Source: Escherichia phage p000v. From it: a stretch of 64,000 nucleotides of DNA. The DNA is taken from the sequence record NC_055781.1, one strand, 5' to 3'. Below are positions 10,305 through 44,544 of this stretch, in pieces. Within the stretch, counting starts at the first letter, position 1; the number at the start of each line of letters is the position of its first letter. The position numbers were made by a program, and so were the translations under genes. The notes under the pieces were generated by a model. That model made no database searches. It worked only from the letters and a program-made list of their open reading frames with translations, and was not told the DNA's origin.

Positions 10305-10340
10305 GTTTACATAAGGATGATGGTGTGTTACTATCATCCT
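10305..10340 (+). promoter_or_regulatory. early-type promoter (GTTTAC -35, TACTAT -10) with 8-bp inverted repeat AGGATGAT/ATCATCCT
   Basis: Sigma70-like spacing; inverted repeat brackets the -10; upstream of CTS protein gene. Confidence 0.6.
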
Positions 10341-10368
10341 ATCAAATAAACAACCTCAAGGAAATAAA

Positions 10369-10680
10369 ATGAAAACGTATCAAGAGTTTATCGCAGAAGC
10401 TACTAAAGCCGATAAAAATTTTATTATTAACACCACCGGTCCGTTAGATGATGAATACGCTAATGCTATTATTAAGTCAATTTCTAATCAAGGCGTTGAA
10501 GTAACAAATTTCGAATATAAGAAAAATGATACTTATATGGTAATTAGTATCAAAAAAGGTTCAAAGGCTAAAATTAAATCTGCATTTGGTGTTATGCGAG
10601 TCGACCAAATCGATAACCACGATTTTTCACAAACAGGGGTCAAACGCCAGAATACTATTTCATCTAAAGGCATAAAATAG
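10369..10680 (+). CDS. internal protein with capsid targeting sequence (IPI-locus protein)
   Basis: Starts MKTYQEFIAEA, the T4 internal-protein capsid-targeting leader; located next to 57B where T4 has ipI. Confidence 0.8.
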   Translation: MKTYQEFIAEATKADKNFIINTTGPLDDEYANAIIKSISNQGVEVTNFEYKKNDTYMVISIKKGSKAKIKSAFGVMRVDQIDNHDFSQTGVKRQNTISSKGIK

Positions 10681-10718
10681 TTTACATGCTGATAGGACTA
10701 TGTTATAGTAGTCCTATC
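10680..10718 (+). promoter_or_regulatory. early-type promoter with 10-bp inverted repeat GATAGGACTA/TAGTCCTATC around -10 (PeSL-like cassette)
   Basis: GTTTAC, 18-bp spacer, TATAGT; perfect inverted repeat flanks the -10. Confidence 0.6.
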
Positions 10719-10746
10719 AAAACAAATGAGTAAATGGAGAAATAAA

Positions 10747-10932
10747 ATGAAACGCGCTGAACTGATTCGTAATGTTGCTGTAGTAATTGCTTCAATGGCT
10801 TTTAGTTTTTCGATGTTTGTAGGATTCATTTGTGGACTACTGACAACAACTGAAAATTCTATCTCATTGGTAGTAGCATTTCTAATCGGCTTAATCGCTA
10901 TCGTTATGGATAAAATTGCAAAAGGTGAGTAA
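10747..10932 (+). CDS. small membrane protein
   Basis: Start set at second ATG (GGAGA SD); two hydrophobic helices. Confidence 0.55.
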   Translation: MKRAELIRNVAVVIASMAFSFSMFVGFICGLLTTTENSISLVVAFLIGLIAIVMDKIAKGE

Positions 10933-11295
10933 ATGAAATATCATGTATATGCGGATTTTGAAGCAAATCCTTCTAAAGACCCTGATTGTCGTTTGATACG
11001 CAGACCATTTGATTCGGCAGCTCAAGCCTGGGCCTGGATTAAATCTAAATCGCCTGGTTATATGTTCTTTGAAGTAGTCGATGACAATGGTACACTGCAT
11101 CCGGCCCCTACAGAAACTATTAATTTCCTTCTGTTTGCTGGTTATGAATATTATCCTTATGGCGGTATTGACGACTTATACGCTAAAGGAAAAACTGTTG
11201 AGGCTCTTCGCGAAATTTATAAAAACGCTGAAGAAAATTTTGACTGGTATCATATTGTTGATGCTCACACCTTTGAAGTGGTGGAACATTCATGA
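10933..11295 (+). CDS. hypothetical protein
   Basis: 120-aa ORF, tightly packed, no motif recognised. Confidence 0.55.
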   Translation: MKYHVYADFEANPSKDPDCRLIRRPFDSAAQAWAWIKSKSPGYMFFEVVDDNGTLHPAPTETINFLLFAGYEYYPYGGIDDLYAKGKTVEALREIYKNAEENFDWYHIVDAHTFEVVEHS

Positions 11296-11582
11296 TTCTT
11301 TATGCTAAAGTATCATCCGTCAAGAACGGTTATGAAAGCGACCAACGTGCAGCTAAAGCACTAGTTGATGACTACGGTATTCTGACCCTCTTTGAAGTTG
11401 AAAAGGTTTATATTGACCGTTCATCTTCACAGGTTAAATTACTCTGGGAAGACCGTAAATTTAATAGTGTGAACTTTGATTTCTTTATTGAAACAGAAAA
11501 AGGCCCTCTTGAATATGATATTTTCAAGAATCCTTTAAATCTTGAATGTATTGAGTATACTTACATTAATATGGTACGGTGA
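11292..11582 (+). CDS. hypothetical protein
   Basis: 96-aa ORF overlapping previous stop (ATGA). Confidence 0.55.
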   Translation: MILYAKVSSVKNGYESDQRAAKALVDDYGILTLFEVEKVYIDRSSSQVKLLWEDRKFNSVNFDFFIETEKGPLEYDIFKNPLNLECIEYTYINMVR

Positions 11583-11586
11583 GTAA

Positions 11587-12102
11587 ATGAATATTCGTTT
11601 AGGCAGTACAATTACTAAGGGCTACGTAATTGATGTCACTACCTATGAAAATGATGGTGACAACTATAAAACCAAAACATTGTTTGAAGTGGAAGAACAT
11701 GAGCTCCAACAGTTTAAATATCTCTTGAAGAAATTTAAGAGCCGTCATTCTAGCACCAAAGCCGAACGCTATTGCGGTAATACACCATTCAGTGATTGCT
11801 CGCTTATTATCTACGAATATCTGGTTGAAGGACTGTTCTCAGACCAACTCCAACCGGAATTTATTAAAAAGGTCTTTGGTATCGAAGTAGACCTTGGTGA
11901 TAAATCTGAAGAAGACGAAGCCCGCGTATTCGACCTGTTCTTTGTGAAAGGCGATGAGATATCTCAAGGACTTATTGATATTCTTGGCTATGCTTCTGAA
12001 TACTATGATTACGATTTCTTGCGTGTAGTTGAACGTGTCGAATTTGCTTATATTGAAAAAGAAATTGTTTTGCCAACAGTTAAAATGGTTGATTTGCTTT
12101 AA
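11587..12102 (+). CDS. hypothetical acidic protein
   Basis: 171-aa ORF with SD; no motif recognised. Confidence 0.55.
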   Translation: MNIRLGSTITKGYVIDVTTYENDGDNYKTKTLFEVEEHELQQFKYLLKKFKSRHSSTKAERYCGNTPFSDCSLIIYEYLVEGLFSDQLQPEFIKKVFGIEVDLGDKSEEDEARVFDLFFVKGDEISQGLIDILGYASEYYDYDFLRVVERVEFAYIEKEIVLPTVKMVDLL

Positions 12103-12181
12103 GAATTATGTGTTATTATTAATTCATACCCTCTATTACCAAAGGTGCTCTAAAGTGCCTTTCATAATAGAAAGTTATTAA

Positions 12182-12253
12182 GGCCCTGTAGCTCAATGGG
12201 AGAGCTGTCAGCTCATAACTGATAGGTAGCTGGATCGAAACCAGCCAGGGCCA
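12182..12253 (+). tRNA. tRNA with CAU anticodon (elongator Met or Ile2-type); CCA not encoded
   Basis: Hand-folded cloverleaf: acceptor GGCCCTG/CAGGGCC, D-stem GCTC/GAGC, anticodon stem GTCAG/CTGAT with loop CTCATAA, T-stem GCTGG/CCAGC; 1-72 pair is G-C so not an initiator. Confidence 0.8.
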
Positions 12254-12294
12254 TATTTTGGGAACATAAATACTCTTAGAAATAGGAGATATTT

Positions 12295-12963
12295 ATGTTC
12301 CATTACACTTATAAAATAACAAATAAAATTAATAATAAAATCTATATAGGCGCTCATTCTACCGAAAATTTAGATGATGGATATATGGGTTCTGGTAAAT
12401 TATTAAAAAGAGCCCAAGACAAGTATGGTATAGAAAATTTTAATAAAGAAATTTTAGAATTCTTTGACACTAAAGAGCAGATGTTTGAAGCCGAGAAAAA
12501 TATCGTAAACGAAGAATTTTTGAATCGTTCTGACGTATATAATTTAAAACTTGGTGGCGAAGGTGGTTGGGACCATTTAAATACTTACGAATTTAATTAT
12601 AAAAAGAAAGAAGCCTCTATTAAAGGAGCCAAAGCTTTTAAAGAGAGATTTGATTCTGATGAAGTGCTTCAAGAAAAATATCGTAAAATGGGTTCAGAGA
12701 AATTAAAGCATCTGTGGACTTTACCTGAATACAGAGAAAAATTCTCTAGCACTAAGTCGTTTTTAAATAAAAATCATACTTCCGAAACTATTGCTAAAAT
12801 GAAAGATACCCACGCCAGGAACAAACACCAACAAGGCGAGAAAAATTCCCAGTTTGGTACTATGTGGATTCATTCATTAGAAGAAAAGAAATCTAAGAAA
12901 ATTAAGAAAACCGATCCTATTCCGGAAGGTTGGATTAAAGGCTATAAACTAAAATTTAAGTGA
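12295..12963 (+). CDS. GIY-YIG homing endonuclease (SegB-like, tRNA region)
   Basis: YKITNKINNKIYIGAHS...GSGKL GIY-YIG motif; adjacent to tRNA as T4 segB. Confidence 0.85.
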   Translation: MFHYTYKITNKINNKIYIGAHSTENLDDGYMGSGKLLKRAQDKYGIENFNKEILEFFDTKEQMFEAEKNIVNEEFLNRSDVYNLKLGGEGGWDHLNTYEFNYKKKEASIKGAKAFKERFDSDEVLQEKYRKMGSEKLKHLWTLPEYREKFSSTKSFLNKNHTSETIAKMKDTHARNKHQQGEKNSQFGTMWIHSLEEKKSKKIKKTDPIPEGWIKGYKLKFK

Positions 12964-12970
12964 GGAAAAT

Positions 12971-13617: not shown

Positions 13618-13647
13618 AAGCCCCTTCCGAAAGGTTGGGGCTTTTTT
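13618..13647 (+). terminator. intrinsic terminator
   Basis: Stem AAGCCCC/GGGGCTT followed by TTTTTT. Confidence 0.8.
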
Positions 13648-13648
13648 G

Positions 13649-13656
13649 TATAAATA
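13649..13656 (+). promoter_or_regulatory. T4-type late promoter TATAAATA
   Basis: Exact TATAAATA 36 nt upstream of CTS protein gene at 13692. Confidence 0.6.
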
Positions 13657-14370: not shown

Positions 14371-14399
14371 GTTTACTTCTTCCCTAGATGTGTTACTAT
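14371..14399 (+). promoter_or_regulatory. early-type promoter (GTTTAC / TACTAT)
   Basis: 17-bp spacer; same cassette family as other early promoters in window. Confidence 0.55.
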
Positions 14400-14429
14400 A
14401 GAACCTATCAACAACATGAGGAAAATGTT

Positions 14430-14933
14430 ATGAGTCTTTACACTGAACTGAATAAAAAATCTGAAGAATCTGCTGAAACTATTTTTAAAAACGTGCAAAA
14501 GCGTATTTTAGAAAAGATGTATAACGCTGCATCTAAAGGTGAAAAATCTTGCCAGTTTCCGATGAGGTGTTCTTCTGATTTATGCGCAAATACTATTGAA
14601 TGGTTGGAAAGTGAAGGTCTTACAGTAGAGAAAAACCCGGCGACTTCTATTGACAGTGAATCATATATTAGTATTTCTTGGGATAAATCAAGGGTAGAAG
14701 AGAAAGATGGTGATTGGGTTGTAGATGTTAAAACTTCTGATGGTGGACGTTCTGTTGAAGTTTCAGCTGTAGTTAAAGGTACCCACGAACAAAGGACTTG
14801 GGGCTGGGGTGGTGAAGAAAAAGAAATTGTTCTTAGTGTGATTGCCAGGTCAACTAGTAATAAAATTGCACAAAGCATCATTGACGCTGCAATTGCTGAA
14901 GCAGAAAAAATTTGCAAAATTAAAAATAAATGA
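14430..14933 (+). CDS. hypothetical protein
   Basis: Start set at MSLYTELNKK (GAGGA SD, 7-nt spacing); 167 aa. Confidence 0.6.
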   Translation: MSLYTELNKKSEESAETIFKNVQKRILEKMYNAASKGEKSCQFPMRCSSDLCANTIEWLESEGLTVEKNPATSIDSESYISISWDKSRVEEKDGDWVVDVKTSDGGRSVEVSAVVKGTHEQRTWGWGGEEKEIVLSVIARSTSNKIAQSIIDAAIAEAEKICKIKNK

Positions 14934-14992
14934 TGTACAATCACCAAGGATGGTGATACTATAGACTTATCAACTACAGAGGAGTAAACAAA

Positions 14993-15157
14993 ATGACTAC
15001 TTTAATTATTTGGTTCGATGAAAATGAAGAAACATACTGTGTGAATATTGGTGAAAGCCCAATGCCTGAATTTGAATCCTCAGATAAAAACTCTGTTGTA
15101 TCTTGGGCTGAAGGTTATAAAGCAGCTAAAGGTGACGTTGAAATAATTTACATCTAA
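14993..15157 (+). CDS. small hypothetical protein (54 aa)
   Basis: Not in ORF track (<60 aa); GAGGAG SD 6 nt before ATG; preceded by promoter-like cassette. Confidence 0.45.
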   Translation: MTTLIIWFDENEETYCVNIGESPMPEFESSDKNSVVSWAEGYKAAKGDVEIIYI

Positions 15158-15203
15158 GTAAGTTTATGTTATAGTAGTTCTATCAAAACAAGAGGAAAAC
15201 AAA

Positions 15204-15431
15204 ATGGCTAAAGTTAGTATTGATGTCGTTGATTATGAATACACAGAAGAAGTTATTCGCAACCGTCACCCTGAAGTTCGTATCGATTCAGTACAAGATT
15301 CCAAGTTCTGGACAACTGAGCTTAATCTGAGTGGTCCTTATGAAGCTGTTAAGAAGTTCATGGTTGAAGAATACTGCGAAGGCATGCACCCCGAAGACGC
15401 CAAGTTTTATGTCAATTTGATTAAAAAATAA
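15204..15431 (+). CDS. hypothetical acidic protein
   Basis: 75-aa ORF with SD. Confidence 0.55.
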   Translation: MAKVSIDVVDYEYTEEVIRNRHPEVRIDSVQDSKFWTTELNLSGPYEAVKKFMVEEYCEGMHPEDAKFYVNLIKK

Positions 15432-15466
15432 TTTACAAACTCTTGAGAGCAGAGTATAATGCTCTC
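15432..15466 (+). promoter_or_regulatory. early-type promoter (TTTACA / TATAAT) with inverted repeat GAGAGCA/TGCTCTC; part of 45-bp exact repeat
   Basis: 17-bp spacer; inverted repeat flanks -10; sequence 15435-15479 recurs identically at 44500-44544. Confidence 0.6.
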
Positions 15467-15501
15467 GTTGGATAATAAACCACCAATTGAAAGGTAATAA
15501 T

Positions 15502-16095
15502 ATGAACACACTGAAGAAACTTGTTGAATTCATCCGCACTAAACTGGGTACTGCTATGGCTAAAAATCTGACTGTAGAAGAACAGTATAACGCAGCTGCA
15601 GATAAGTTGATTACCCAAATCAAAGAACTAAAAACGGCTTCTGTTAAATCTATTAACGAAGAAAAACGTATTCGCGAACTTGTTAATGAAAAGAACAAGC
15701 AAGCCGCTTCTAAGGAACGTGAAATTCGTAAGCTCCTGGCTGAAGGACAAGATGTTACCATGCATGCTAAGCTTGGTCTTCTGTATCGTCGAACTGCCGA
15801 ACAACTTAATACAAAAGCTGACGGTTATGCCGCTATGCGAATTGAAATTGCTCGTAAGGTGGTTGAACTTGATGATGCTCGTCAGAACCTGGCAATCAAA
15901 CTCGAATACATTCGTGAAACTCGAGCAGCCAATGCCCTTGGTATCTCTACGGCTGATGATGTGATTGAAATTGCTGCACTGACTAAGGTTGATATCGAAG
16001 ACACTCTGACTCGTGTCGAAACATTCAATGGCACTCCAGCCGGTGTCGAAACCACTTCTGCTGATGTACAAGAATATATTAACTCTTTGAAATAA
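15502..16095 (+). CDS. coiled-coil protein, possible PspA/IM30-like
   Basis: 197 aa, start MNTLKKL with AAAGG SD; long amphipathic heptad-rich helices; resemblance to PspA is architectural only. Confidence 0.55.
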
Positions 16096-17117: not shown

Positions 17118-17147
17118 GTTTACGCTTCTCAAATGATTAGTTATAAT
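17118..17147 (+). promoter_or_regulatory. early-type promoter (GTTTAC / TATAAT)
   Basis: 18-bp spacer; upstream of tandem paralog triplet. Confidence 0.55.
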
Positions 17148-18005: not shown

Positions 18006-18043
18006 GTTTACAACAAGATAGGGCTATGTTATAGTAGTCCTAT
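18006..18043 (+). promoter_or_regulatory. early-type promoter with inverted repeat GATAGGGCTA/TAGTCCTATC (PeSL-like)
   Basis: GTTTAC, TATAGT; near-identical to cassettes at 10680 and 19298. Confidence 0.6.
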
Positions 18044-18063
18044 CAAATTAAATGGAGTCTACA

Positions 18064-18303
18064 ATGATTTATTATGAAAGTATCGGAACCGAAGTAGTTG
18101 CTAAAACTATTACTCGTGAAAAGTTTGCAAAGATATTCGATATGCGTTATAAAAAATCTGAACACAAAGGCATCCGATTCGAAGATGCGCACTGTACAAT
18201 TTGCCCTTATAATGAAGACATAAACGGTACAATCGTTCCATTGGTAGAGGCTTCACATGATGACCTCTGGGATGAATATAATATCGCATGTCGCGAAATT
18301 TAA
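18064..18303 (+). CDS. hypothetical protein
   Basis: Start set at MIYYESIG (GGAG SD 6 nt upstream); 79 aa. Confidence 0.55.
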   Translation: MIYYESIGTEVVAKTITREKFAKIFDMRYKKSEHKGIRFEDAHCTICPYNEDINGTIVPLVEASHDDLWDEYNIACREI

Positions 18304-19297: not shown

Positions 19298-19334
19298 GTT
19301 TACAACAAGATAGGACTATGTTATAGTAGTCCTA
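19298..19334 (+). promoter_or_regulatory. early-type promoter with inverted repeat GATAGGACTA/TAGTCCTAT (PeSL-like)
   Basis: GTTTAC, TATAGT; same cassette family. Confidence 0.6.
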
Positions 19335-19355
19335 TTAAAACACGAGGAGAATATT

Positions 19356-19661
19356 ATGAAATTAGGCGAAACCAACCGAATTGGTCTTTTAACAATATTT
19401 GCATCACCTTTTTACGCAGCTCTTTCTGTTGCAGTATTACAAAAGGCTTACGATATGGATGGTGTTCCTGGTTGTATATTCTTATCACCATTTTTGTTAT
19501 TCGTTGGAGCACTGCTATTATACGCCACGACTAGTTTCGACCATAATGTCTGGGTTAATTATAAATGTAAATTGTCTGAAGAAGAACACGCAGAAGCTCG
19601 TAAAAAAGCTATTGAATCTACCAATCTAGAAAATTTCATTAAAGAATGTCGAGGAAAATAA
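19356..19661 (+). CDS. small membrane protein with C-terminal ENFIKECRGK tail
   Basis: Two hydrophobic helices; GAGGAG SD. Confidence 0.6.
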   Translation: MKLGETNRIGLLTIFASPFYAALSVAVLQKAYDMDGVPGCIFLSPFLLFVGALLLYATTSFDHNVWVNYKCKLSEEEHAEARKKAIESTNLENFIKECRGK

Positions 19662-21521: not shown

Positions 21522-21529
21522 GTAATAAA

Positions 21530-21553
21530 TACCTCCTATAAACGTGGGAGGTA
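21530..21553 (+). promoter_or_regulatory. RBS-sequestering hairpin of lysozyme gene with late-promoter-like AATAAATA just upstream
   Basis: Stem TACCTCC/GGAGGTA pairs anti-SD with SD of gene e; AATAAATA at 21524-21531 would start late transcripts inside the hairpin. Confidence 0.5.
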
Positions 21554-22323: not shown

Positions 22324-22377
22324 GTTTACTTCCTCCAAGGACTTTGATACTATACATTCATCAACTACTTGGAGGAA
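22324..22377 (+). promoter_or_regulatory. early-type promoter embedded in RBS-sequestering hairpin upstream of denV
   Basis: GTTTAC then 10-bp TTCCTCCAAG pairing with CTTGGAGGAA (the denV SD); TACTAT -10 lies in the loop. Confidence 0.6.
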
Positions 22378-22380
22378 ATT

Positions 22381-22794
22381 ATGACTCGTATCAATTTAAC
22401 ACTTGTTTCTGAACTGACCGACCAACATCTTATGGCTGAGTATCGTGAATTACCACGCGTATTTGGTGCAGTCCGTAAACATGTTCAAAATGGTAAACGT
22501 GTAAAGGATTTTAAAATCTCTCCAACATTTATCTTAGGCACAGGTCACGTAACATTCTTTTACGACAAACTTGAATTTTTACGTTTACGTCAAATCGAGC
22601 TAATCGTGGAATGTTTAAAACGCGGTTTCAAAATCAAGGACACGACAGTCCAGGATATTTCCGACATTCCTGTAGAATTTCGTAATAATTATGTCCCGTC
22701 CGAAGCGTCCATTGCGATAAGTCAAGCACGCTTAGATGAAAAAATTGCTCAACGTCCGACTTGGTACAAATACTATGGTAAATCAATTTACTAA
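22381..22794 (+). CDS. denV: endonuclease V (pyrimidine dimer DNA glycosylase)
   Basis: [34 protein letters not shown]...; near-colinear with T4 endonuclease V. Confidence 0.95.
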
Positions 22795-22806: not shown

Positions 22807-23061
22807 ATGTATCAAGAATTTACCGCTGAAGCAGATGCCAAAGGCCCAAAGTTTAAAGTTAAAGCTTTCATTGGTGATGCGGAAGACTTTGGCTCATTAA
22901 AATGTAATGGGTATTCTTTCTTAGGTGGCGATGGTAAAGAAATCAACACCTATGCAAAACGTAGTGAAATTGCTTATGTTGTAGCAAGTCCTAAAGTAGA
23001 TGTTGACGATATTGAATACGATTTTAACAACTTCGGAATTATTTCTGGCGGTAAAGCTTAA
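22807..23061 (+). CDS. capsid-targeted internal protein (CTS variant MYQEFTAEA)
   Basis: 84 aa; leader related to MKTYQEFIAE. Confidence 0.65.
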   Translation: MYQEFTAEADAKGPKFKVKAFIGDAEDFGSLKCNGYSFLGGDGKEINTYAKRSEIAYVVASPKVDVDDIEYDFNNFGIISGGKA

Positions 23062-23065: not shown

Positions 23066-23095
23066 GTTTACGCTTAAGTATTAATATGGTATAAT
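23066..23095 (+). promoter_or_regulatory. early-type promoter (GTTTAC / TATAAT)
   Basis: 18-bp spacer; followed by CTATCAAAAC motif common to cassettes. Confidence 0.6.
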
Positions 23096-23125
23096 TACTC
23101 TATCAAAACAAACAAGGAAACAAAA

Positions 23126-23440
23126 ATGAAAACGTATAAAGAATTTATTGCAGAATCCGCCAACCAACGCGTTGAAGGTGGTTATATTTGGATTGAACAA
23201 GTTGAGCCACCGAGCCGCACTTCTACAGGTAAATGGAAAATTACCGTTGATGGTCCTGGTGGTAAACGTAGGACTCTTAAAGAAATTAACGGGTACTATG
23301 AAGAAGCTCTTTCGGATGCAGGAACTTACATGATGCAAATCATGATTAAAAACCCTGAAAACCGTTTTGCAGCTAAAGTCTTCCGCCGCATCGGTAATAA
23401 ACTTTATGATGCATACTCTAAAAACTTCCCTAAAGAATAA
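23126..23440 (+). CDS. internal protein (IPII-position, CTS leader MKTYKEFIAE)
   Basis: 104 aa basic protein with canonical CTS; position after denV as T4 ipII. Confidence 0.8.
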   Translation: MKTYKEFIAESANQRVEGGYIWIEQVEPPSRTSTGKWKITVDGPGGKRRTLKEINGYYEEALSDAGTYMMQIMIKNPENRFAAKVFRRIGNKLYDAYSKNFPKE

Positions 23441-26135: not shown

Positions 26136-26186
26136 GTTTACTTCTCCTCTAGTTGTGTTACTATAGACCTGTCAACTAGAGGAGAA
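26136..26186 (+). promoter_or_regulatory. early-type promoter embedded in 14-bp RBS-sequestering inverted repeat
   Basis: GTTTAC; TTCTCCTCTAGTTG pairs with CAACTAGAGGAGAA (SD of gene at 26193); TACTAT -10 in loop. Confidence 0.6.
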
Positions 26187-26192
26187 ATCAAA

Positions 26193-26651
26193 ATGACTAT
26201 CAATTCGGAAGTTTTTATCCGTCGCAATAAACTCCGTCGAATCTTTGAAACGGAGTTTCGTCAAATCAACGCCAGTATAAAAGATGCTGCAAAGTCTCTT
26301 GGACTACCAGGCTTTCATATAAAGTATTCTCAACATCTCTTAGATCGTGCCATCCAGAGAGAAATAGATGAGAATTACGTTTTTGAATTATTTCATAAAG
26401 TAAAAAATCATGTTAAAGAAGTTGCAGAATTTTTATCAATGCCGGCACGTCCAGATGTTGATGAAGATTTTGTCGAAGGTGTCGAATATCGCCCAGGCCG
26501 TTTAGAAATAACTGACGGAAATCTTTGGTTAGGACTTACAGTCTGTCGCGAAAATCCAGCATTCAAAATGAAGACTCTTCAATGCAGAATGGCTATTATT
26601 AACAGTAAACGACTACCAGGAAAAGCTTCTAAAGCAGTGATTAAAATCTAG
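26193..26651 (+). CDS. hypothetical protein
   Basis: 152-aa ORF with sequestered SD. Confidence 0.6.
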   Translation: MTINSEVFIRRNKLRRIFETEFRQINASIKDAAKSLGLPGFHIKYSQHLLDRAIQREIDENYVFELFHKVKNHVKEVAEFLSMPARPDVDEDFVEGVEYRPGRLEITDGNLWLGLTVCRENPAFKMKTLQCRMAIINSKRLPGKASKAVIKI

Positions 26652-29578: not shown

Positions 29579-29607
29579 AGCCCCTTCCTTATGGTTGGGG
29601 CTTTTTT
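29579..29607 (+). terminator. intrinsic terminator
   Basis: AGCCCC/GGGGCT stem followed by TTTTTT; near-duplicate of terminator at 13618. Confidence 0.8.
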
Positions 29608-29617
29608 GTATCTATCA

Positions 29618-29669
29618 GTTTACTTCTCCGCAGGTTGTGTTATAGTAGTCTTTACTTACTAGAGGAGAA
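29618..29669 (+). promoter_or_regulatory. early-type promoter with anti-SD (TTCTCC) in spacer pairing to downstream SD
   Basis: GTTTAC, 17-bp spacer, TATAGT; TTCTCC 29625-29630 complementary to GGAGAA 29664-29669. Confidence 0.55.
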
Positions 29670-29673
29670 CGTT

Positions 29674-29853
29674 ATGTCACGTAAAGAAAAAATTTCTAAG
29701 TTAATGTTTTTGATTGAAGAGTACGCTAATGCCGTATCTGATTGGGAGAATGCCCACGGGTGCGAAGATGGCGATATTGATATCAATAAGGCAATGAAAA
29801 AGATGGCTGACGCCCACACCGAATTGCAAATGTATGTTAACGAGATTATGTGA
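29674..29853 (+). CDS. hypothetical protein
   Basis: Start at MSRKEK (AGAGGAG SD); 59 aa. Confidence 0.5.
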   Translation: MSRKEKISKLMFLIEEYANAVSDWENAHGCEDGDIDINKAMKKMADAHTELQMYVNEIM

Positions 29854-29860: not shown

Positions 29861-30067
29861 ATGCTTTACGATTATACTGGAAAATCTGAAGACGGTGTAC
29901 TTGAACTTTTACCTGAAAGCGCTGAAGATGATGATACGGTGGTGATGTTTTGTAAAAATGGTCCTGGGGATAAGGGATGGATTTATCTTCGTCAAGAAAA
30001 TGATCTAATTGTTTTGGACCCAAAACAAGTTGAAGAACTTTATCAACATTTAAAACATAATCGGTAG
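29861..30067 (+). CDS. hypothetical acidic protein
   Basis: Start at MLYDYTGK; 68 aa. Confidence 0.5.
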   Translation: MLYDYTGKSEDGVLELLPESAEDDDTVVMFCKNGPGDKGWIYLRQENDLIVLDPKQVEELYQHLKHNR

Positions 30068-30105
30068 TTTACATCTTGGTAGGATTATGTTATAGTAGTC
30101 CTACC
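30067..30105 (+). promoter_or_regulatory. early-type promoter with inverted repeat GGTAGGATTA/TAGTCCTACC (PeSL-like)
   Basis: GTTTAC, TATAGT; same cassette family. Confidence 0.6.
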
Positions 30106-30124
30106 AAAACGAACGGAGAACAAA

Positions 30125-30235
30125 ATGAAACTTTTGCTTATCGCTTATGTTGTAGTACAATACAATTATCCGATGTTTACTTATAACATGGTAAACGGCA
30201 TAGTGAATCTTATTGAAACGAGTATGGTAAAATGA
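30125..30235 (+). CDS. small hydrophobic peptide (36 aa)
   Basis: Not in track; GGAGA SD; MKLLLIAYVVVQYNYPMF...; ATGA-coupled to next ORF. Confidence 0.4.
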   Translation: MKLLLIAYVVVQYNYPMFTYNMVNGIVNLIETSMVK

Positions 30236-32710: not shown

Positions 32711-32761
32711 ATGTGGGGACCTTCGGGTCCCTTTAGGGGGTTAAAATATTTTTAAAAAGTA

Positions 32762-32790
32762 GTGTACATGCTTTTAGGATATGATACTAT
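32762..32790 (+). promoter_or_regulatory. early-type promoter (GTGTAC / TACTAT)
   Basis: 17-bp spacer; follows terminator-like hairpin. Confidence 0.5.
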
Positions 32791-32828
32791 AGACCTATCG
32801 AAACGAAATGAGTAAATTGGAGAATAAA

Positions 32829-33809
32829 ATGTTCAACGTTCAAATCAAAAAAGGTATCTATCGTAATAACGAAATCTCTGGTTCTTATGTTGCCACAAAG
32901 ACCTGGTTCCCGGCAAAGCTTAATCCTGAATGTTCCCACTTAGGTGACGGTAAAATTTTCGTTATGATTGATGGTTCTGAACGTGGAGTATGGGTCTTCA
33001 AATCAGACATCGTAATGGAAGGAGTTGAGACATCACCAGTTGCAGTTGTTGAAAGCACTGAAGATATGAAAACTCGTATCAACAAACGCTTTAAAGTAAT
33101 GAACATGATGACGAATGGCATTATTGATGGCAAAATTCGTTCACTCATTATTTCAGGTGCAGCTGGTATTGGTAAGACGTATTCTCTGGATAAAGCACTT
33201 AATAATGCTAATGATAATGGTTTCATCAAATACAAAAGCATTAATGGTAAAATCTCCGGTATTGGCCTTTACGAACAACTTTGGCTCAACCGTGATGCAG
33301 ACAGCGTTCTCTTAATCGATGACGTTGACGTATTCTCAGATATGGACATCCTGAACCTTCTTAAAGCCGCATTAGATACCGGCGATAAACGCAAAGTTTG
33401 CTGGAGCACTGCATCATCTTATCTTGATGATAAGGGTATCGATAAAGAATTTGAGTTTGAAGGTACTATCGTTTTCATTACAAACGTTGATATTGATAAA
33501 GAGTTAGAACGCGGTTCGAAACTTGCTCCGCACCTTCAAGCTCTAGTATCTCGTTCAGTGTATCTCGACCTTGGAGTACACTCTAATGAAGAGATTATGG
33601 TTCGAGTTGAAGATGTAATATTATCTACTGACATGATGCAGAAACGTGGCTTGACTGATGCTGAAACGTACAAAGCATTGTCCTGGATGAAGGCTAACGT
33701 ATCTCGTCTTCGCAATGTATCATTACGTACGGCTCTTTATGTAGCAGATTTTATTTCAACTGATAAAGATGGTTGGGAAGAAATCTCGGAAGTTACTTTA
33801 CTGAAATAA
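32829..33809 (+). CDS. AAA+ ATPase (initiator/DnaC-IstB-like motif pattern)
   Basis: Walker A GAAGIGKT, Walker B VLLIDDVD, sensor-1-like IVFITN; start at second ATG with GGAGA SD. Confidence 0.65.
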   Translation: MFNVQIKKGIYRNNEISGSYVATKTWFPAKLNPECSHLGDGKIFVMIDGSERGVWVFKSDIVMEGVETSPVAVVESTEDMKTRINKRFKVMNMMTNGIIDGKIRSLIISGAAGIGKTYSLDKALNNANDNGFIKYKSINGKISGIGLYEQLWLNRDADSVLLIDDVDVFSDMDILNLLKAALDTGDKRKVCWSTASSYLDDKGIDKEFEFEGTIVFITNVDIDKELERGSKLAPHLQALVSRSVYLDLGVHSNEEIMVRVEDVILSTDMMQKRGLTDAETYKALSWMKANVSRLRNVSLRTALYVADFISTDKDGWEEISEVTLLK

Positions 33810-33947
33810 GCTTATAGGAAGTTCTTAGGTAACAAAAGCCATAAAGATGAATAATCATATGGCTTACCTCAAAGAAGGACACCAGGAACCTACTGAGGGC
33901 ATAGAAATATTTAAAAATAATGATGTACAAATCAAAGAGGATATGTT

Positions 33948-34235
33948 ATGGATTTTATGCAAAAAATTAAAGCCGCAGTCGAACTCTATGCACATCGTAT
34001 GGTTAGTTCTACGATGCAATATAGCGAGGAAGTTCGCCAGGACTCTTCCTTGAAAGGAAAAACTAAAGCCTTAATTACCTTAGATCATTTGCAAAAGAAT
34101 GCCATAGAGATGCTCCAGTACGACAAGAGTGTATATAAGAAAGAACAGGAAGAGAAACTTAAATCTGAAAAATTACAAAAAATCCCGAAGTCTGTTTGGT
34201 TCAGTGGAAAAAATACCGAAAAAAGTTTCTTTTAG
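33948..34235 (+). CDS. hypothetical protein
   Basis: 95-aa ORF with AGAGGA SD. Confidence 0.5.
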   Translation: MDFMQKIKAAVELYAHRMVSSTMQYSEEVRQDSSLKGKTKALITLDHLQKNAIEMLQYDKSVYKKEQEEKLKSEKLQKIPKSVWFSGKNTEKSFF

Positions 34236-34237: not shown

Positions 34238-34272
34238 GTTTACAAGGTCTATGGTTATGTTATTATAGACCT
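34238..34272 (+). promoter_or_regulatory. early-type promoter with inverted repeat AGGTCTAT/ATAGACCT
   Basis: GTTTAC, 17-bp spacer, TATTAT. Confidence 0.55.
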
Positions 34273-34293
34273 ATCAACTACTGGAGGTAAAAC

Positions 34294-34821
34294 ATGAACG
34301 CTAAAGATATTTTCAACCTGGTAAATTATAACGACGGTAAATTTAAATCTGAAGCACAGAGCAAGTTCTTTAATGACGTTGCTTATGGTAACGAGATTAC
34401 CGTGGATGGAGGTCAGATTTTCAAATCTCGCTGGAATTGGATTGTTATCATCGATTCAGTTGGAATTGTGGAAGTCTACAAAAACACTAACAAAAAACGT
34501 ACATTATTCTGGTCTCGTGAAACTAACGAGCAGTACAAAAAGGATAAAGCATCTCGTTTATCCAAAGTAACCCAGGAAGATATCGAGTTCATTAAGAAAG
34601 ATATCGAGATGTATGAAAATTTAATCGCTGAAGACCAGGCAGTACTCGATAAGTTTGATGAAATTAAAGCTTCTCGTGAAATCCCTGACTTCATGAAAGA
34701 AACAGTAAACGAACGATACGCTCTCACTTCAGAACGTATTGCAAACTATACAAAACAGAAAGCAGAACGTATTAGTACTCTTCGGAAATTTGAAGAACGT
34801 TTAAAGACGGTTCACGCATAA
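34294..34821 (+). CDS. hypothetical protein
   Basis: 175-aa ORF with GGAGG SD. Confidence 0.6.
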   Translation: MNAKDIFNLVNYNDGKFKSEAQSKFFNDVAYGNEITVDGGQIFKSRWNWIVIIDSVGIVEVYKNTNKKRTLFWSRETNEQYKKDKASRLSKVTQEDIEFIKKDIEMYENLIAEDQAVLDKFDEIKASREIPDFMKETVNERYALTSERIANYTKQKAERISTLRKFEERLKTVHA

Positions 34822-34883: not shown

Positions 34884-35879
34884 ATGAGCATTACATCTGA
34901 TGCGGTAAAACATGAAATTAACGGTTTATGTGCTTCACAGATTAAAGTGTGGTTTAAAGACCATAACGATCGCAGAGCACTTAATTATGAGCAAATTGCT
35001 ATCCAAGTTCATCAATTACTGACTAGTAAATTTGATTTTCATATGCCGTCTGAAATCTATACTAATCTGCCGCGAGCACTTATTAAAGCGTGTAAAGGTT
35101 ATGGAAAATCAATGGCTGACGGAATCTTCAGCGCGCTGAATAAACTTAACGTTCTGTCGATGATTAACTCTAACAATATCCTGCGTAATCTAGGACGTAC
35201 TGATTTGTTCGGTCGTGAACAGTGTAAAATGCCTTTGAAATGGATTGTTGCTCATCTTAACGAGAACCAAACACGTTTTATGGCCGTAACAGCACGTTTA
35301 CAAATGGGCCTAGATCGTCAGATGAACTTTAAAACTCATCCACGTTATTCAGGTTCAACAGACTTTTATAAATGTGAGCTTCAAAAGGTTGGTGGTAAAA
35401 CTGTCTTAGTAGTTCGTGTAACGTTTGAAGGACGACGTCAAGGATATTTTGACATAATCGGCTCTGGTCTTAAACATTGTGGATTTATCGACGAAGTTGA
35501 TATCAAGCGAGACGGCATTGGATACCGTATTGGGTATGTTTGTACTCTTAAAGAAGAGATTTCAGGACCAGCTCCAGGACTAAAAGACGTTAGATATAAA
35601 GACGAGCTCGTTGAAGAAATAAAAGAAGTTGAATATGATATCAACCAAGAAGATGCTCTTAAAGACCTTATTGATGAACTGAACCAAGATGTTATTCCTG
35701 TTCAGAAATTTGAATCAAAACATGCTGAGCAAATCAAATACTTTGAAGCTTTGATTAACGAACTTAATGTAACTATTCAACAGACTGACGATGAAATCTC
35801 ACGATTAGCAGGCTTAAACGGTAAAAATAAAACAGAACGAGCTAATCTTATTCAAGTAGTAAAACTTCTTAAGGAATGA
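34884..35879 (+). CDS. hypothetical protein with C-terminal coiled coil
   Basis: 331-aa ORF, GAGGA SD. Confidence 0.65.
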   Translation: MSITSDAVKHEINGLCASQIKVWFKDHNDRRALNYEQIAIQVHQLLTSKFDFHMPSEIYTNLPRALIKACKGYGKSMADGIFSALNKLNVLSMINSNNILRNLGRTDLFGREQCKMPLKWIVAHLNENQTRFMAVTARLQMGLDRQMNFKTHPRYSGSTDFYKCELQKVGGKTVLVVRVTFEGRRQGYFDIIGSGLKHCGFIDEVDIKRDGIGYRIGYVCTLKEEISGPAPGLKDVRYKDELVEEIKEVEYDINQEDALKDLIDELNQDVIPVQKFESKHAEQIKYFEALINELNVTIQQTDDEISRLAGLNGKNKTERANLIQVVKLLKE

Positions 35880-35908
35880 TGTACAACCAAGGATGGTTGG
35901 AGTATAAT
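35880..35908 (+). promoter_or_regulatory. promoter-like cassette (TGTACA / TATAAT) with CAACC-AAGGAT-GGTTG hairpin in spacer
   Basis: Related to cassette at 14934-14962 (TGATGTACAA...CCAAGGATGG). Confidence 0.45.
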
Positions 35909-35936
35909 GAATCTATCTTAACTAGAGGAAAATATT

Positions 35937-36887
35937 ATGACACGTTCACATTACATTGAATACTTTGCCGGTCTTATCGCTAACGTTCATGCTCAGCGCG
36001 CTTCTGGTGCACTAGGATTTGATGTTCCACACCGAGATGTAGTAAGTGGTATTCTTCGCGATTTTGGTACATACACAGGCCAAGAAAATCATATCTGTAA
36101 AGATACTCAGAATGCATATTCTCATTCATTAGGGACACTGCTTCAATGGTTCAAACGTTCTCGTTTATTATCTTCTACTGTAGCTCGCGATAACATTAAA
36201 AACTTTATGAAACCGAGCTTTATTAAATCTGTGACATCTAAAACCGATTTGGTTGAATTCACTATTGTTAATGATGTTAAAAAGACTCATTTAGCTGATT
36301 GGTTATCTACCATTCCTGAAACTAAATTTGCTGATAAATTTGCTTGTGAATTCAATAACCAAGTGAATATGCTTTTTAAACATTCTCGTAAATTATTCAC
36401 AGGCGGCGATGATCGTACAAATAAAGTTCATGTTAAAGATTGGGTTACTGCAGTATTCAAACCAACAGGTAATGGTAACGCATCATTGTCAATTGATATT
36501 CAGGTTCCTTATTACTACTCACGTAATCTCGGCACCATGAAAGCCGAAGAAATTAATAAGCGCAACAAAACCATTCGTTCGCTGTCTTATAAACTTCGCA
36601 TGATGTTAAGAATCATGGACGTGGTAGAAATGTATGATGAAACCGAAGATAATGGTTCAATGTTATACAGTTCTCGCATTCAAATTAAGTTGAAGAACCC
36701 TAACGAGTATAAGCCTAAGCCTATTAAAGAGCCTAAAGCAGAAAAAGTTGATAACTTAAGAGAAGAACGCGAATATCTCAAATCTCGTCTGAAAGAAGTC
36801 GAAGCCCAGATTAAAGAACAGACTAAATCGTTAAAAGCTCTGAATGCGAAAGCGGATGGTTTACGAAATGCCATTGAGGTGTTATAA
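35937..36887 (+). CDS. hypothetical protein with C-terminal coiled coil
   Basis: 316-aa ORF, GAGGA SD. Confidence 0.65.
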   Translation: MTRSHYIEYFAGLIANVHAQRASGALGFDVPHRDVVSGILRDFGTYTGQENHICKDTQNAYSHSLGTLLQWFKRSRLLSSTVARDNIKNFMKPSFIKSVTSKTDLVEFTIVNDVKKTHLADWLSTIPETKFADKFACEFNNQVNMLFKHSRKLFTGGDDRTNKVHVKDWVTAVFKPTGNGNASLSIDIQVPYYYSRNLGTMKAEEINKRNKTIRSLSYKLRMMLRIMDVVEMYDETEDNGSMLYSSRIQIKLKNPNEYKPKPIKEPKAEKVDNLREEREYLKSRLKEVEAQIKEQTKSLKALNAKADGLRNAIEVL

Positions 36888-38529: not shown

Positions 38530-38657
38530 ACCGTGGTATTCTGCTCGATGGGAGACTGTCGAGCCAGACGTCGAAACAGTTTACAACGACGAAGAAACGT
38601 GTTATGATGAACCTACAGTAAACGATATGATTGATTTGGAAATGGGAAGAGATTATT

Positions 38658-39243: not shown

Positions 39244-39278
39244 TAAATACCCTTATCTATTTAAGGTAAGGGTTTATT

Positions 39279-42359: not shown

Positions 42360-42361
42360 TT

Positions 42362-42679: not shown

Positions 42680-42968
42680 AATTTATGGCATCCCTGAAGA
42701 AGTTGGACGTTGTCCAGGATGTTATACTGTTACAAAACTTTTAAAGGAGCTCAATGCTCCTTATACATTTTATAAAGTCCTCACTAATAATGGTAAGATT
42801 GAATATGACCGTCCTTTAATCGTATCTCTTGCTAAACGTGCAGGATTCACTTCACTTAATATTCGTTATCCTGTCATATTTTTAAATGATAAGAAACAAA
42901 AGAATATTGCAGAGTTTAAAAAGTCCTTGATTTCATTAGGATATGACTCTGATATCATAGAAGATTGA
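42645..42968 (+). CDS. glutaredoxin-like protein (NrdH-position), probable GTG start
   Basis: KIEIYGIPEEVGRCPGCY thioredoxin-fold CxxC resembling NrdC N-terminus; no in-frame ATG near domain start; GTG 42645 with AAGGA upstream. Confidence 0.55.
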   Translation: MEQNSNLKNKIEIYGIPEEVGRCPGCYTVTKLLKELNAPYTFYKVLTNNGKIEYDRPLIVSLAKRAGFTSLNIRYPVIFLNDKKQKNIAEFKKSLISLGYDSDIIED

Positions 42969-43133
42969 CCAGGTGCCGCCTGGTCTTCTTTATCCCATTT
43001 CCAATATAATCTATTGGAATCTTCACTTCACTATCTCCTTGTGCCCCTCTCAAACCAAAAATATTTTCATAAAACAGTTTACATCCTCAATAGTTGTGTT
43101 AAGATTAAACCATCTACTATAGAGGAAAATAAA

Positions 43134-43316
43134 ATGACAATTGAAGATAAAGAAATTAAGGTTGACCAGTACTATTCTGTCAACGGTAATGCAGTACAGA
43201 TAACCAGAGTTTCAAGCCTGGATGTTTGGTACCGTTCAATCAAATATCCAGAAATTGGTGAAATGCTTTGTGACCGTGGTATCTTCTGTTCAATTGCAAA
43301 GGAAATTAAGCCATGA
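43134..43316 (+). CDS. hypothetical protein
   Basis: Start at MTIEDKEIK with GAGGA SD; 60 aa. Confidence 0.5.
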   Translation: MTIEDKEIKVDQYYSVNGNAVQITRVSSLDVWYRSIKYPEIGEMLCDRGIFCSIAKEIKP

Positions 43317-43561
43317 TTAGTTTAGACTCAAAGAAAGTTGTTCTAACCCTTAAAGTTAATGACGAGCGACTGGTATTCATTACCATTTCCGATTTACATG
43401 TTGAAATTGCTAATGGCGTCCGTACTTATCAAGCAAATAAAACTCATTGGGATTATATCCCGATGTTGACGCTTACTCAGCGTTTAGAATCAATCGGTCT
43501 TAAAGACCTTTCAGTAAGTGAAGTGAATTTTATCAAACGTGTCGTATCAATCAACCTCTGA
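43313..43561 (+). CDS. hypothetical protein
   Basis: 82-aa ORF, ATGA-coupled. Confidence 0.5.
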   Translation: MISLDSKKVVLTLKVNDERLVFITISDLHVEIANGVRTYQANKTHWDYIPMLTLTQRLESIGLKDLSVSEVNFIKRVVSINL

Positions 43562-43568
43562 GGTACTT

Positions 43569-43862
43569 ATGGGTAAAACATATCGTCGTAAAGATTTGAA
43601 AGTTCGCGATTATGACTATTTTGGTAAGCGTAAAGCTCCTGACGGTGTTAGCCACAAGGACATGGTTGAAAACATTTTCCGCTCAGATAAATGGAAACGT
43701 ATGAAAGGAGTTGATTCTGAAGTCAAGAATGAAATGAATCGACAACTCCGCAAAGAAGTTCGTAAGTTGAAAAAAGATGTTTACAGTAAAGAAGAGTATG
43801 ATTATAATACTTCTCATACTGAAGCCAAACGTAAAGCTAACGAATGTTATCGTTACAGTTGA
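43569..43862 (+). CDS. hypothetical basic protein
   Basis: Start at MGKTYRRKDL with GAGGT SD. Confidence 0.55.
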   Translation: MGKTYRRKDLKVRDYDYFGKRKAPDGVSHKDMVENIFRSDKWKRMKGVDSEVKNEMNRQLRKEVRKLKKDVYSKEEYDYNTSHTEAKRKANECYRYS

Positions 43863-43869
43863 GGAAATT

Positions 43870-44004
43870 ATGAATATCAAACGAATGCTTTTTAAGCAGG
43901 GATTATATACTTTAAATGTTAATCCAAAGGGTGATACAACTAAATGGTCTGTAAATGACTGGATTAAGTTCATCGATGAAAATGGGGCGTGGAACACAAA
44001 ATGA
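43870..44004 (+). CDS. small hypothetical protein (44 aa)
   Basis: Start MNIKRMLFK with GAGGA SD; upstream part of track ORF is in overlap with preceding gene. Confidence 0.4.
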   Translation: MNIKRMLFKQGLYTLNVNPKGDTTKWSVNDWIKFIDENGAWNTK

Positions 44005-44201
44005 ATCCTGAAAATATTGTGTCATGGCAACTTCGTGAAGAACGTGCCGAATTCTTTGCCAATATGAAACTCAACGGTGTTGAGGATGAAGACTTTTTAC
44101 GCTGGTTCTGGATTTACAAATACAAAGAATGCCAACATGCTGTGCTATTGACTTGCGCAATTATGTACGAAGGCTGGAAAGGCGCTAAAAAGTTCGGTTA
44201 A
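44001..44201 (+). CDS. hypothetical protein
   Basis: Start at MNPENIV, ATGA-coupled. Confidence 0.5.
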   Translation: MNPENIVSWQLREERAEFFANMKLNGVEDEDFLRWFWIYKYKECQHAVLLTCAIMYEGWKGAKKFG

Positions 44202-44203
44202 TA

Positions 44204-44239
44204 GTTTATGATGGTAGGAAGAAGTGTTATCTTCCTACC
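44204..44239 (+). promoter_or_regulatory. promoter-like cassette with 10-bp inverted repeat GGTAGGAAGA/TCTTCCTACC
   Basis: GTTTAT then perfect inverted repeat; upstream of gene at 44257. Confidence 0.45.
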
Positions 44240-44256
44240 AATTTGAGGAGAATATC

Positions 44257-44496
44257 ATGGAACAAGAATTAGACATTATTACATCGAAAAAACGTCTTGA
44301 AGTTGTAGTGAACGGCTCAACTATTAAGTTTGTATATGACACTTTAACTGATGCTATTACCGTTAGTTGTGGCGGAAAGGCTTTTAGTCTAGATTCTACT
44401 GAAAACAAATACCCGTTCTATAAAGGTATCTTTGATATGGGTGTTGATATCAGTGTTCGTCAAGCAAACTATTTACATTATCTTATCACGAAATAA
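44257..44496 (+). CDS. hypothetical protein
   Basis: Start at MEQELDII with GAGGAG SD. Confidence 0.55.
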   Translation: MEQELDIITSKKRLEVVVNGSTIKFVYDTLTDAITVSCGGKAFSLDSTENKYPFYKGIFDMGVDISVRQANYLHYLITK

Positions 44497-44499
44497 CGC

Positions 44500-44544
44500 A
44501 CAAACTCTTGAGAGCAGAGTATAATGCTCTCGTTGGATAATAAA
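44500..44544. repeat. 45-bp exact direct repeat of promoter cassette at 15435-15479
   Basis: ACAAACTCTTGAGAGCAGAGTATAATGCTCTCGTTGGATAATAAA present identically at both sites; contains TATAAT flanked by GAGAGCA/TGCTCTC. Confidence 0.85.

Follow-up and report, generated by a model that had tools for sequence, protein, structure and literature searches.

Composite promoter cassettes are a recurrent feature of the early regions of T4-type phages. The promoter-early-stem-loop (PeSL) cassette was defined in RB49 and phi1 as an early promoter that has an A/T-rich tract upstream and a Shine-Dalgarno sequence (SD) with a start codon downstream, combined with a stem-loop that contains G-T pairs and is placed between the -35 and -10 elements or over the -10; the cassette is credited with a role in modular shuffling (Arbiol et al. 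2010, PMC2839356). The concept was later extended to T-even phages, PST/T4 and nt-1/KVP40, with the consensus TTTACW-N17-TAYWAT (Comeau et al. 2014, PMC4122927). Here, we analyse a 64,000-nt stretch of Escherichia phage p000v (NC_055781.1, hereafter the window), in which recurring cassettes occupy the range 10,305-44,544. In our reading, to which we give a probability of roughly 0.8, these are sigma-70 early promoters of a Mosigvirus organised as compact cassettes, equivalent to T-even PeSLs, with hairpins that act in read-through RNA and with sequences that are used as recombination homology.

The resemblance to published PeSLs, already put forward in the initial annotation, holds for the promoter, stem-loop and SD/ATG layout and for the location in a hyperplastic region. 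In both cases, composite intergenic cassettes with the same order of components, the same stem-loop position and G-T pairs lie in hyperplastic early regions, open reading frames (ORFs) are deleted or inserted by cassette-to-cassette exchange, and the window promoters match TTTACW-N17-TAYWAT. However, the window stems are A/T-rich and cassette-specific, whereas the published ones are polyG/polyC; those of PST/T4 are drawn just upstream of the promoter, while the window stems overlap it or reach the SD; and occlusion of the ribosome-binding site is not discussed in the PeSL papers (PMC2839356, PMC4122927). For RB69, which belongs to the same genus, early promoters were predicted at the same loci with the same GTTTAC, GT-rich stretch before the -10 and C at -3 to -1, but that study gives promoter logos and coordinates only, and its main text has no hairpins, palindromes or stem-loops (Nolan et al. 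2006, PMC1524935). At the T-even internal protein (IP) loci, as summarised in PMC2839356, homology blocks with an early promoter and an A/T-rich stem-loop flank swappable genes (Repoila et al. 1994). The window ipI (10305, 10680) and the IP cluster at 22.8-24.1 kb resemble this arrangement, but, compared with the blocks in that summary, the cassette type described here extends across 35 kb and is found ahead of many genes other than IP genes. Both the promoters (in RB69) and the promoter-plus-stem-loop concept have thus been published, and the present results are mostly confirmation. They make modest additions, namely two structural classes, evidence for selection at the RNA level and concrete recombination scars, and extend the PeSL concept to the RB69/JS09 genus, home of many therapeutic coliphage isolates.

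Predicted early promoters of the hyperplastic region

Megablast of the 10-30 kb part of the window returned >1000 T4-type phage records, the best matches being Mosigvirus genomes (vB_EQ1, mar005P1, JS09, phiE142 and others) with about 95-97% identity in 6-11 aligned pieces each. Judged by its sequence, the window belongs to a Mosigvirus, an RB69/JS09-like T4-type phage. In the JS09 annotation, the gene order is gp1, 57A, 57B, ipI, tRNA.4-.2, e.6-e.2, nudE, e, denV and the ip genes, then vs.8-vs.1, regB, tk, rI, mobD, nrdC.11-nrdC, pin, 49, nrdD/G and 55.x. All genes of this order lie on the + strand of the window, so that 10.3-45.4 kb (ipI ... regB ... nrdC ... 55.x) represents a large early "hyperplastic" region, with late baseplate genes on one side (1-9 kb) and the replication core on the other (from ~46 kb). 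The cassettes are confined to it, none being present at 1-9 kb or 46-64 kb. An Rfam search of the window gave a sole match, tRNA-Met (12182-12253).

A search of the window for GTTTAC-N16-19-TANNNT yielded 20 matches against 3.84 +/- 1.86 in shuffled sequences, an enrichment of about 5-fold reached in 0 of 100 shuffles. The + strand carries 17 of the matches, spread over 10305-43808; 13 of these are clearly intergenic and followed by an SD and an ATG, while three (36859, 38579 and 43779) fall inside genes. A further seven cassettes, with a degenerate -35 (ATGTAC at 14933 and 35879, ATTTAC at 15146 and 15431, GTGTAC at 32762, GTTTAT at 44204, none at 44496), came from repeat finding and from a scan that allowed one mismatch, bringing the number of intergenic cassettes to about 20. 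On the whole, the initial observation proves largely accurate and its interpretation is borne out, with corrections on several points. A generic sigma-70 scan (TTGACA/TATAAT) was discarded, as it showed no enrichment (68 against 61 and 64 against 66 expected), the T4-type GTTTAC form alone being enriched.

The intergenic sites have the features of T4-type early promoters, with a spacer of 17-18 bp and a downstream SD and ATG, the latter 52-90 nt past the -35 across 20 cassettes. A complete cassette comprises an A-rich upstream tract, the -35 (GTTTAC), a spacer of 17-18 bp with TGn at its end, a -10 that fits TA(T/C)(A/T)(A/G)T, a C-rich start region, and a leader of about 20-30 nt with an SD before the ATG; most are in addition overlapped by a cassette-specific inverted repeat, giving a T-even version of the PeSL. 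The upstream tract is modestly enriched, the 25 nt before the -35 having a mean A+T of 0.71 (A 0.41) compared with 0.63 (A 0.33) for the window. The cassette promoters have orthologues among the early promoters of T4 and among those predicted in RB69, where 26 of the 58 fall in the homologous 42-77 kb segment (PMC1524935); the orthology to T4 early promoters suggests that the cassette promoters are active. The T4 RefSeq record carries no promoter features, and the T4 sites were located by pattern.

Four cassettes (10680, 18006, 19298 and 30067) had been singled out as near-identical, and they do agree at 37-46 of 52 positions over -41..+11. A common downstream sequence exists as CTATCAA after seven cassettes; the longer form first reported, CTATCAAAAC, occurs exactly after three only. 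The idea that a small accessory ORF follows every cassette does not hold, since the downstream genes include regB (152 aa), denV (137 aa), ipI, e.6, nrdC.10 (326 aa) and nrdC.3 (316 aa). With regard to annotation and engineering, the cassettes mark natural portable modules of promoter and ribosome-binding site, and likely safe insertion or deletion junctions.

Two classes of inverted repeat and their probable role in RNA

The repeats fall into two classes. In class 1 (10305, 10680, 18006, 19298, 30067, 34238, 44204 and 15431/44496, with small spacer hairpins at 14933 and 35879), the 5' arm lies in the spacer and the 3' arm runs through the -10 to end a few nucleotides from the predicted +1. 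In class 2 (denV at 22324, regB at 26136 and 43077, and more weakly 29618 and 14371), the 5' arm immediately follows GTTTAC and reads TTCTCC or TTCCTCC, and the 3' arm is the SD region of the downstream gene. The original description of a repeat that brackets the -10 does not fit the second kind.

Among 23 window sites, 8 have an individually significant repeat when compared with dinucleotide shuffles (p <= 0.025; about 0.6 such sites expected by chance), and a few more have stems of 6-8 bp. Convincing repeats are present at some 12-13 of the 20 intergenic cassettes, rather than at all of the 16 or more sites for which they had been claimed. A broader sample comprised 134 distinct sequences from promoter to ATG, taken from the window, T4, five Mosigvirus relatives and 16 IMG/VR loci that had been found with RegB; 63% of them have a stem with 8 or more Watson-Crick pairs, compared with 16% of shuffles. 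Further evidence comes from 41 non-redundant promoters, whose spacers were all tested for pairing against all of the downstream segments, a design that keeps the consensus composition: at least 10 pairs are formed by 39% of the cognate combinations and by 1.2% of the non-cognate ones (permutation p = 2e-4). The inverted repeats are therefore real and cassette-specific.

This result bears on one alternative, namely that the elements are plain early promoters whose palindromes are a functionless by-product of the consensus, with its GT-rich spacer end, A/T-rich -10 and purine-rich SD. That explanation would account for the 7-8 of 23 sites that have no significant repeat and for stems conserved no better than their flanks among close relatives. 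Yet the excess of cognate pairing persists with consensus composition kept, and the arm sequences differ wholly between genera while their pairing is kept, which makes it very unlikely.

Comparison across phages documents this covariation. Such stems recur at the orthologous T4 promoters of ipI, ipII/III and mobD.2 (class 1) and of denV, regB and nrdC.8 (class 2): the T4 ipI promoter has a different 13-bp hairpin, T4 denV has the counterpart stem TCTCCTGTAG / CTACAGGAGA, and T4 nrdC.8 carries a class-2 anti-SD stem in place of the class-1 hairpin of the window. At regB, four lineages retain the stem although their non-SD arm sequences differ: CTAGTTG/CAACTAG, CTTGACTG/CAGTTAAG, CTTTATG/CATAAAG and TGTAAG/CTTACA. 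A MAFFT alignment of regB leaders, in which the arms fell out of register, was left out of the pair counting. In a fixed-register alignment of class 1, 84% of cells are paired compared with 71% in shuffles and 31-57% when the arms are slid, and both sides change in 12 of 14 pairs. Within the window, cassettes 14933 and 35879 are paralogues whose arms have changed in a compensating manner, and cassette 30067 differs from the 10680 family by a compensatory A-T to G-C change.

The mismatches indicate the molecule in which pairing matters. Within cognate stems, they comprise 18 G.T, 3 A.C and 4 others, compared with 116 G.T, 94 A.C and 310 others in composition-matched non-cognate duplexes (p = 0.005 and 4e-7). 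An earlier count of 51 G.T against 7 A.C was rejected, being affected by relatedness and position-specific composition, in favour of this cognate/non-cognate control. A G.T on the sense strand is an A.C on the opposite one, and the bias thus favours a single-stranded sense molecule, i.e. RNA. As the 5' arm (positions 1-15 past the -35) lies upstream of the predicted +1, the hairpin would form solely in read-through transcripts.

One could instead suppose that the repeats work in double-stranded DNA, either as operators for dimeric proteins, for instance in early-promoter shut-off, or as cruciforms cut by endonuclease VII to start recombination. The literature gives no settled mechanism for the shut-off of T4 early promoters (PMC3014915, PMC2988021), a recombination protein binding the stem-loops was speculated upon by Arbiol et al. 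(PMC2839356), and a metagenome-derived contig, described below, has rearrangement junctions exactly at hairpin arms. On the other hand, no sequence is common to the arms, the centre of symmetry takes three different registers with respect to the -10, the mismatches are G.T on the sense strand, and class-2 arms target the SD, which is meaningful in RNA only; we consider action in DNA improbable.

For class 2, the predicted consequence is occlusion of the SD. Partition-function probabilities were compared for RNA coming from read-through and RNA starting at the cassette +1, which excludes the 5' arm: the predicted probability that the SD is unpaired is 0.00 in read-through RNA and 0.41 in own-promoter RNA for denV, 0.00 and 0.62 for regB, and 0.01 and 0.70 for 43077. 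No consistent effect on the SD was predicted for class 1. We infer that the hairpins act at the RNA level, class 1 by attenuation or stabilisation and class 2 by translational gating. A class-1 hairpin, standing at the 3' end of the upstream cistron, would most plausibly attenuate read-through or block 3' exonucleases. In class 2, the anti-SD arm would pair with the downstream ribosome-binding site in read-through RNA, preventing both translation and cleavage by RegB at GGAG, and the gene would be expressed only from its own early promoter. It is known that RNA structure shields GGAG from RegB, that a typical early promoter drives regB and that RegB cleaves its own SD (PMC3014915).

Comparable devices are established for the T4 genes e, soc, 49 and I-TevI, where SD-sequestering hairpins contain an internal promoter (PMC3014915). 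There too, a long transcript started upstream hides the ribosome-binding site in a helix, while a promoter located within the 5' arm yields a shorter RNA that can be translated. The internal promoter of that set is, however, late (TATAAATA, gp55), resulting in an early-off/late-on pattern, whereas the present cassettes have early sigma-70 -35/-10 elements; they consequently stand outside the set, although they would work alike. The window has SD-sequestering hairpins of its own upstream of gene e (21527-21553, ATACCTCC..GGGAGGTAT) and gene 49 (39249-39273, ACCCTTATC..GGTAAGGGT); being the documented occlusion structures of the T4 type, they provide internal positive controls for the class-2 proposal. 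The early-promoter anti-SD version, for which no description was found in the literature covered, older T4 work lying outside that coverage, is the only part of the system that may be undescribed. That class 2 is a conserved, hitherto undescribed device, tying translation of regB, denV, nrdC.8 and other early genes strictly to their own promoters, with hairpins selected as RNA and not as DNA recombination signals, is a tentative proposal that we hold to be rather doubtful as a whole. Such a device may also control the access of RegB to GGAG and insulate gene cassettes from read-through, with compensatory change in at least four T4-like lineages. If functional, it would explain how packed co-directional early genes are individually controlled despite heavy read-through, and would bear on RegB autoregulation.

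Several observations weigh against the reading of the cassettes as PeSLs with RNA-level hairpins. About one third of the cassettes have no significant repeat; among the 23 window sites of the dinucleotide-shuffle test, those at 15146, 17118, 23066, 32762, 36859, 38579 and 43779 lack one, and that at 14371 is weak. The sequences of the class-1 alignment were pre-selected for stems, so that only its covariation part is informative. Among close orthologues, stem columns are about as variable as non-stem columns (5.1% and 6.3%), and new substitutions favour G.U over A.C by a small margin only in tight ortholog clusters (8 against 4-5; 10 and 9 in looser clusters), so that no purifying selection on the stems can be seen at this short range. 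Selection on the stems is thus visible between genera but not within the genus. Furthermore, the promoter-overlapping hairpins were not called as + strand terminators in an intrinsic-terminator scan, and their terminator activity is unproven because no U-tract follows the stems. Finally, promoter use, read-through and hairpin formation in p000v itself are things that we infer.

A separate terminator-like hairpin stands upstream of three cassettes (hairpins at 29579, 32712 and 42967). The intrinsic-terminator-like form AGCCCC..GGGGCTTTTTTGTAT occurs twice, at 13619-13651 and 29579-29611, the copies being 91% alike and 16 kb apart; they represent a second kind of dispersed regulatory repeat, and an ORF replacement in phiEC1 starts on its left side at the 13619 copy. 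The individual cassettes and related sites are collected in Table 1.

Table 1. Positions and features of the cassettes and related sites in the window (WC, Watson-Crick)
Element	Position	Strand	Promoter and start codon	Inverted repeat and remarks
ipI cassette	10305..10371	+	-35 GTTTAC; -10 TACTAT 10329-10334; ATG 10369	
ipI cassette, class-1 hairpin	arms 10314-10324 / 10330-10340	+		10 WC pairs and 1 G.T
tRNA.4 cassette	10680..10749	+	-10 TATAGT; ATG 10747	class 1, TGATAGGACTA (10690-10700) / TAGTCCTATCA (10709-10719)
cassette 14371	14371..14432	+	ATG 14430	weak class-2 anti-SD arm TTCTTC 14377-14382 / GAGGAA 14418-14423
cassette 14933	14933..14995	+	-35 ATGTAC; ATG 14993	small spacer hairpin ATCACCA 14940-14946 / TGGTGAT 14951-14957
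frd.3 cassette	15146..15206	+	-35 ATTTAC; -10 TATAGT	no significant inverted repeat; degenerate copy of 10680 family
e.6 cassette	15431..15504	+	-10 TATAAT	45-bp copy 1, 15435-15479; hairpin GAGAGCA 15445-15451 / TGCTCTC 15460-15466 around -10
promoter-like match	17118..17147	+	GTTTAC..TATAAT	no inverted repeat; inside e.3 coding sequence in relatives
cassette 18006	18006..18066	+	ATG 18064	class 1, GATAGGGCTA (18017-18026) / TAGTCCTATC (18035-18044)
cassette 19298	19298..19358	+	ATG 19356	class 1, ATAGGACTA (19310-19318) / TAGTCCTAT (19327-19335); chimeric relative to JS09
denV cassette	22324..22383	+	ATG 22381	class 2, anti-SD arm TTCCTCCAAGGA (22330-22341) / SD-containing TACTTGGAGGAA (22366-22377)
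internal-protein gene cassette	23066..23128	+	ATG 23126	no significant inverted repeat
regB cassette	26136..26195	+	ATG 26193	class 2, perfect 14-bp repeat TTCTCCTCTAGTTG (26142-26155) / CAACTAGAGGAGAA (26173-26186)
terminator-like hairpin and cassette	29579..29676	+	-35 at 29618; ATG 29674	hairpin AGCCCC..GGGGCTTTTTT 29579-29611, ahead of -35
cassette 29618, partial anti-SD arm	29624-29631 / 29662-29669	+		TTCTCCGC pairs with GAGGAGAA
cassette 30067	30067..30127	+	ATG 30125	class 1, TTGGTAGGATTA (30076-30087) / TAGTCCTACCAA (30096-30107)
GC-rich hairpin and nrdC.10 cassette	32712..32831	+	-35 GTGTAC 32762; -10 TACTAT; ATG 32829	hairpin GGGGACCTTCGGGTCCC; promoter without internal repeat
nrdC.8 cassette	34238..34296	+	ATG 34294	class 1, AGGTCTATGGT (34245-34255) / ATTATAGACCT (34262-34272)
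nrdC.3 cassette, chimeric	35879..35939	+	-35 ATGTAC	spacer hairpin CAACCA 35884-35889 / TGGTTG 35894-35899
cassette 43077	43077..43136	+	ATG 43134	class 2, anti-SD arm TCCTCAATAGT (43084-43094) / ACTATAGAGGA (43116-43126)
cassette 44204	44204..44259	+	-35 GTTTAT; poor -10 TATCTT; ATG 44257	perfect 11-bp hairpin TGGTAGGAAGA (44212-44222) / TCTTCCTACCA (44230-44240)
55.2 cassette	44496..44565	+	no recognisable -35 (ACGCAC); ATG 44563	45-bp copy 2, 44500-44544
middle-promoter-like site	45384..45436	+	MotA box (TGCTTTA)	hairpin ATAGGTCT..AGACCTAT around -10; just beyond the cassette range

Recombination footprints at cassettes and the 45-bp element

Comparison of the window with eight relatives by blastn revealed about 20 indel or replacement events. 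In JS09, nrdC.5 lies between two cassettes with 28 bp in common, whereas the window has one chimeric cassette (35879) and no nrdC.5, the deletion junction falling in the 28-bp identity of the two flanking cassettes. Likewise, the place of the single window cassette 19298 is taken in JS09 by two cassettes that enclose an additional ORF. A replacement of the ipI allele extends from cassette 10305, together with the capsid-targeting sequence, to cassette 10680, with a right boundary at 10675. Other events have a cassette at one boundary only (14416 relative to phiEC1, 26132, and 32708/32769). These alignments point to the cassettes serving as recombination homology: as dispersed repeats of 30-70 bp, they would offer phage recombination the means for gene loss, gain, replacement and conversion. 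They also provide examples, at the nucleotide level, of accessory early gene gain, loss and conversion in the RB69/JS09 genus.

Whether the cassettes are recombination hotspots, as initially put forward, is a separate matter. Breakpoints occur at 10 of 20 cassette junctions compared with 15 of 58 other junctions (Fisher p = 0.045), but this difference is lost against other intergenic gaps of at least 40 nt, 10/20 compared with 5/12. Three clear cassette-to-cassette events are seen between relatives, and statistical support for a special hotspot status is weak. The lack of excess, like the origin of several indels in homing endonuclease genes or in a repeated IP capsid-targeting sequence, is to be set against the recombination part of our reading. 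The two window-specific ORFs at 6659-7309 (between genes 4 and 2) and 12295-12963 (just after tRNA-Met) code for GIY-YIG seg-like homing endonucleases; absent from all eight relatives, they explain breakpoints that do not involve cassettes. The N-terminal IP capsid-targeting sequence (MKTY.EFI..), with its SD, is present four times (10369-10397, 22807-22829, 23126-23154 and 23466-23494) and coincides with allele-swap boundaries at 10391, 23154 and 23488; IP genes also swap at this repeat with no cassette involved.

The same observations suit a view in which breakpoints arise from general microhomology recombination combined with selection for intact genes, the cassettes being passengers and not mediators. 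T4 recombines readily at microhomologies of 2-10 bp anywhere (PMC9391042), cassette gaps are not enriched for breakpoints among intergenic gaps of at least 40 nt, and the two window-specific insertions are homing endonuclease genes. That view is less at ease with the nrdC.5 junction, which falls within the 28 bp common to two flanking cassettes, and with the 45-bp patch described next, which is bounded by cassette sequence; it is a serious possibility, if the less probable one.

The 45-bp element, in which 15435-15479 was found to be identical to 44500-44544 as first noticed, covers, as copy 1, the promoter of e.6 and, as copy 2, that of 55.2. It is present in 159 phage records at 349 places and is annotated 'promoter' in phage NBG1. 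Both RB69 copies are among the predicted early promoters of that phage, Pe:72069 (e.6) and Pe:42515 (55.2) (PMC1524935), and lie in the homologous segment mentioned above. Copy 2 of RB69 has diverged, its -35 reading GTATAC and its hairpin showing a compensatory change from C-G to A-T, whereas the copies in p000v are exact, which suggests a patch reaching from just past the -35 to just before the SD. The identity is accordingly best read as the trace of a recent conversion. Some Mosigvirus genomes have three copies of the element rather than two.

The 16 loci from the IMG/VR scan with RegB do not suffice for surveying breakpoints across the genus. In one metagenome-derived IMG/VR contig (IMGVR_UViG_2706795553_000001, L007), homology to the window begins at the 5' arm of 19298 and ends exactly past the 5' arm of 30067 (GGTAGGACTA), where it gives way to poly-A and unrelated sequence; the junctions are at contig positions 3100-3110 and 14060-14070. 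They reflect either a rearrangement that took place at the hairpins or an artefact to which the hairpins gave rise during assembly.

Further sites in the region are related to the cassettes. A 250-bp deletion in the window ends at the promoter-like site 17118. The intragenic GTTTAC..TATGAT/TATAAT matches at 38579-38608 and 43779-43808 are kept at the same positions in T4 (NC_000866; 47452 and 41261), and could be internal promoters or a coincidence of coding conservation. The MotA-box site at 45384-45436 is the middle-promoter counterpart of the cassettes and resembles the 'PmSL' described for phage nt-1, and a second MotA-box promoter-like site is present at 12095, ahead of tRNA-Met. At 33915-33950, a 'half cassette' is found, in which AATGATGTACAA, otherwise known from the left part of 14933 and of 35879, directly joins an SD and an ATG with no -10, and which may represent a recombination scar.

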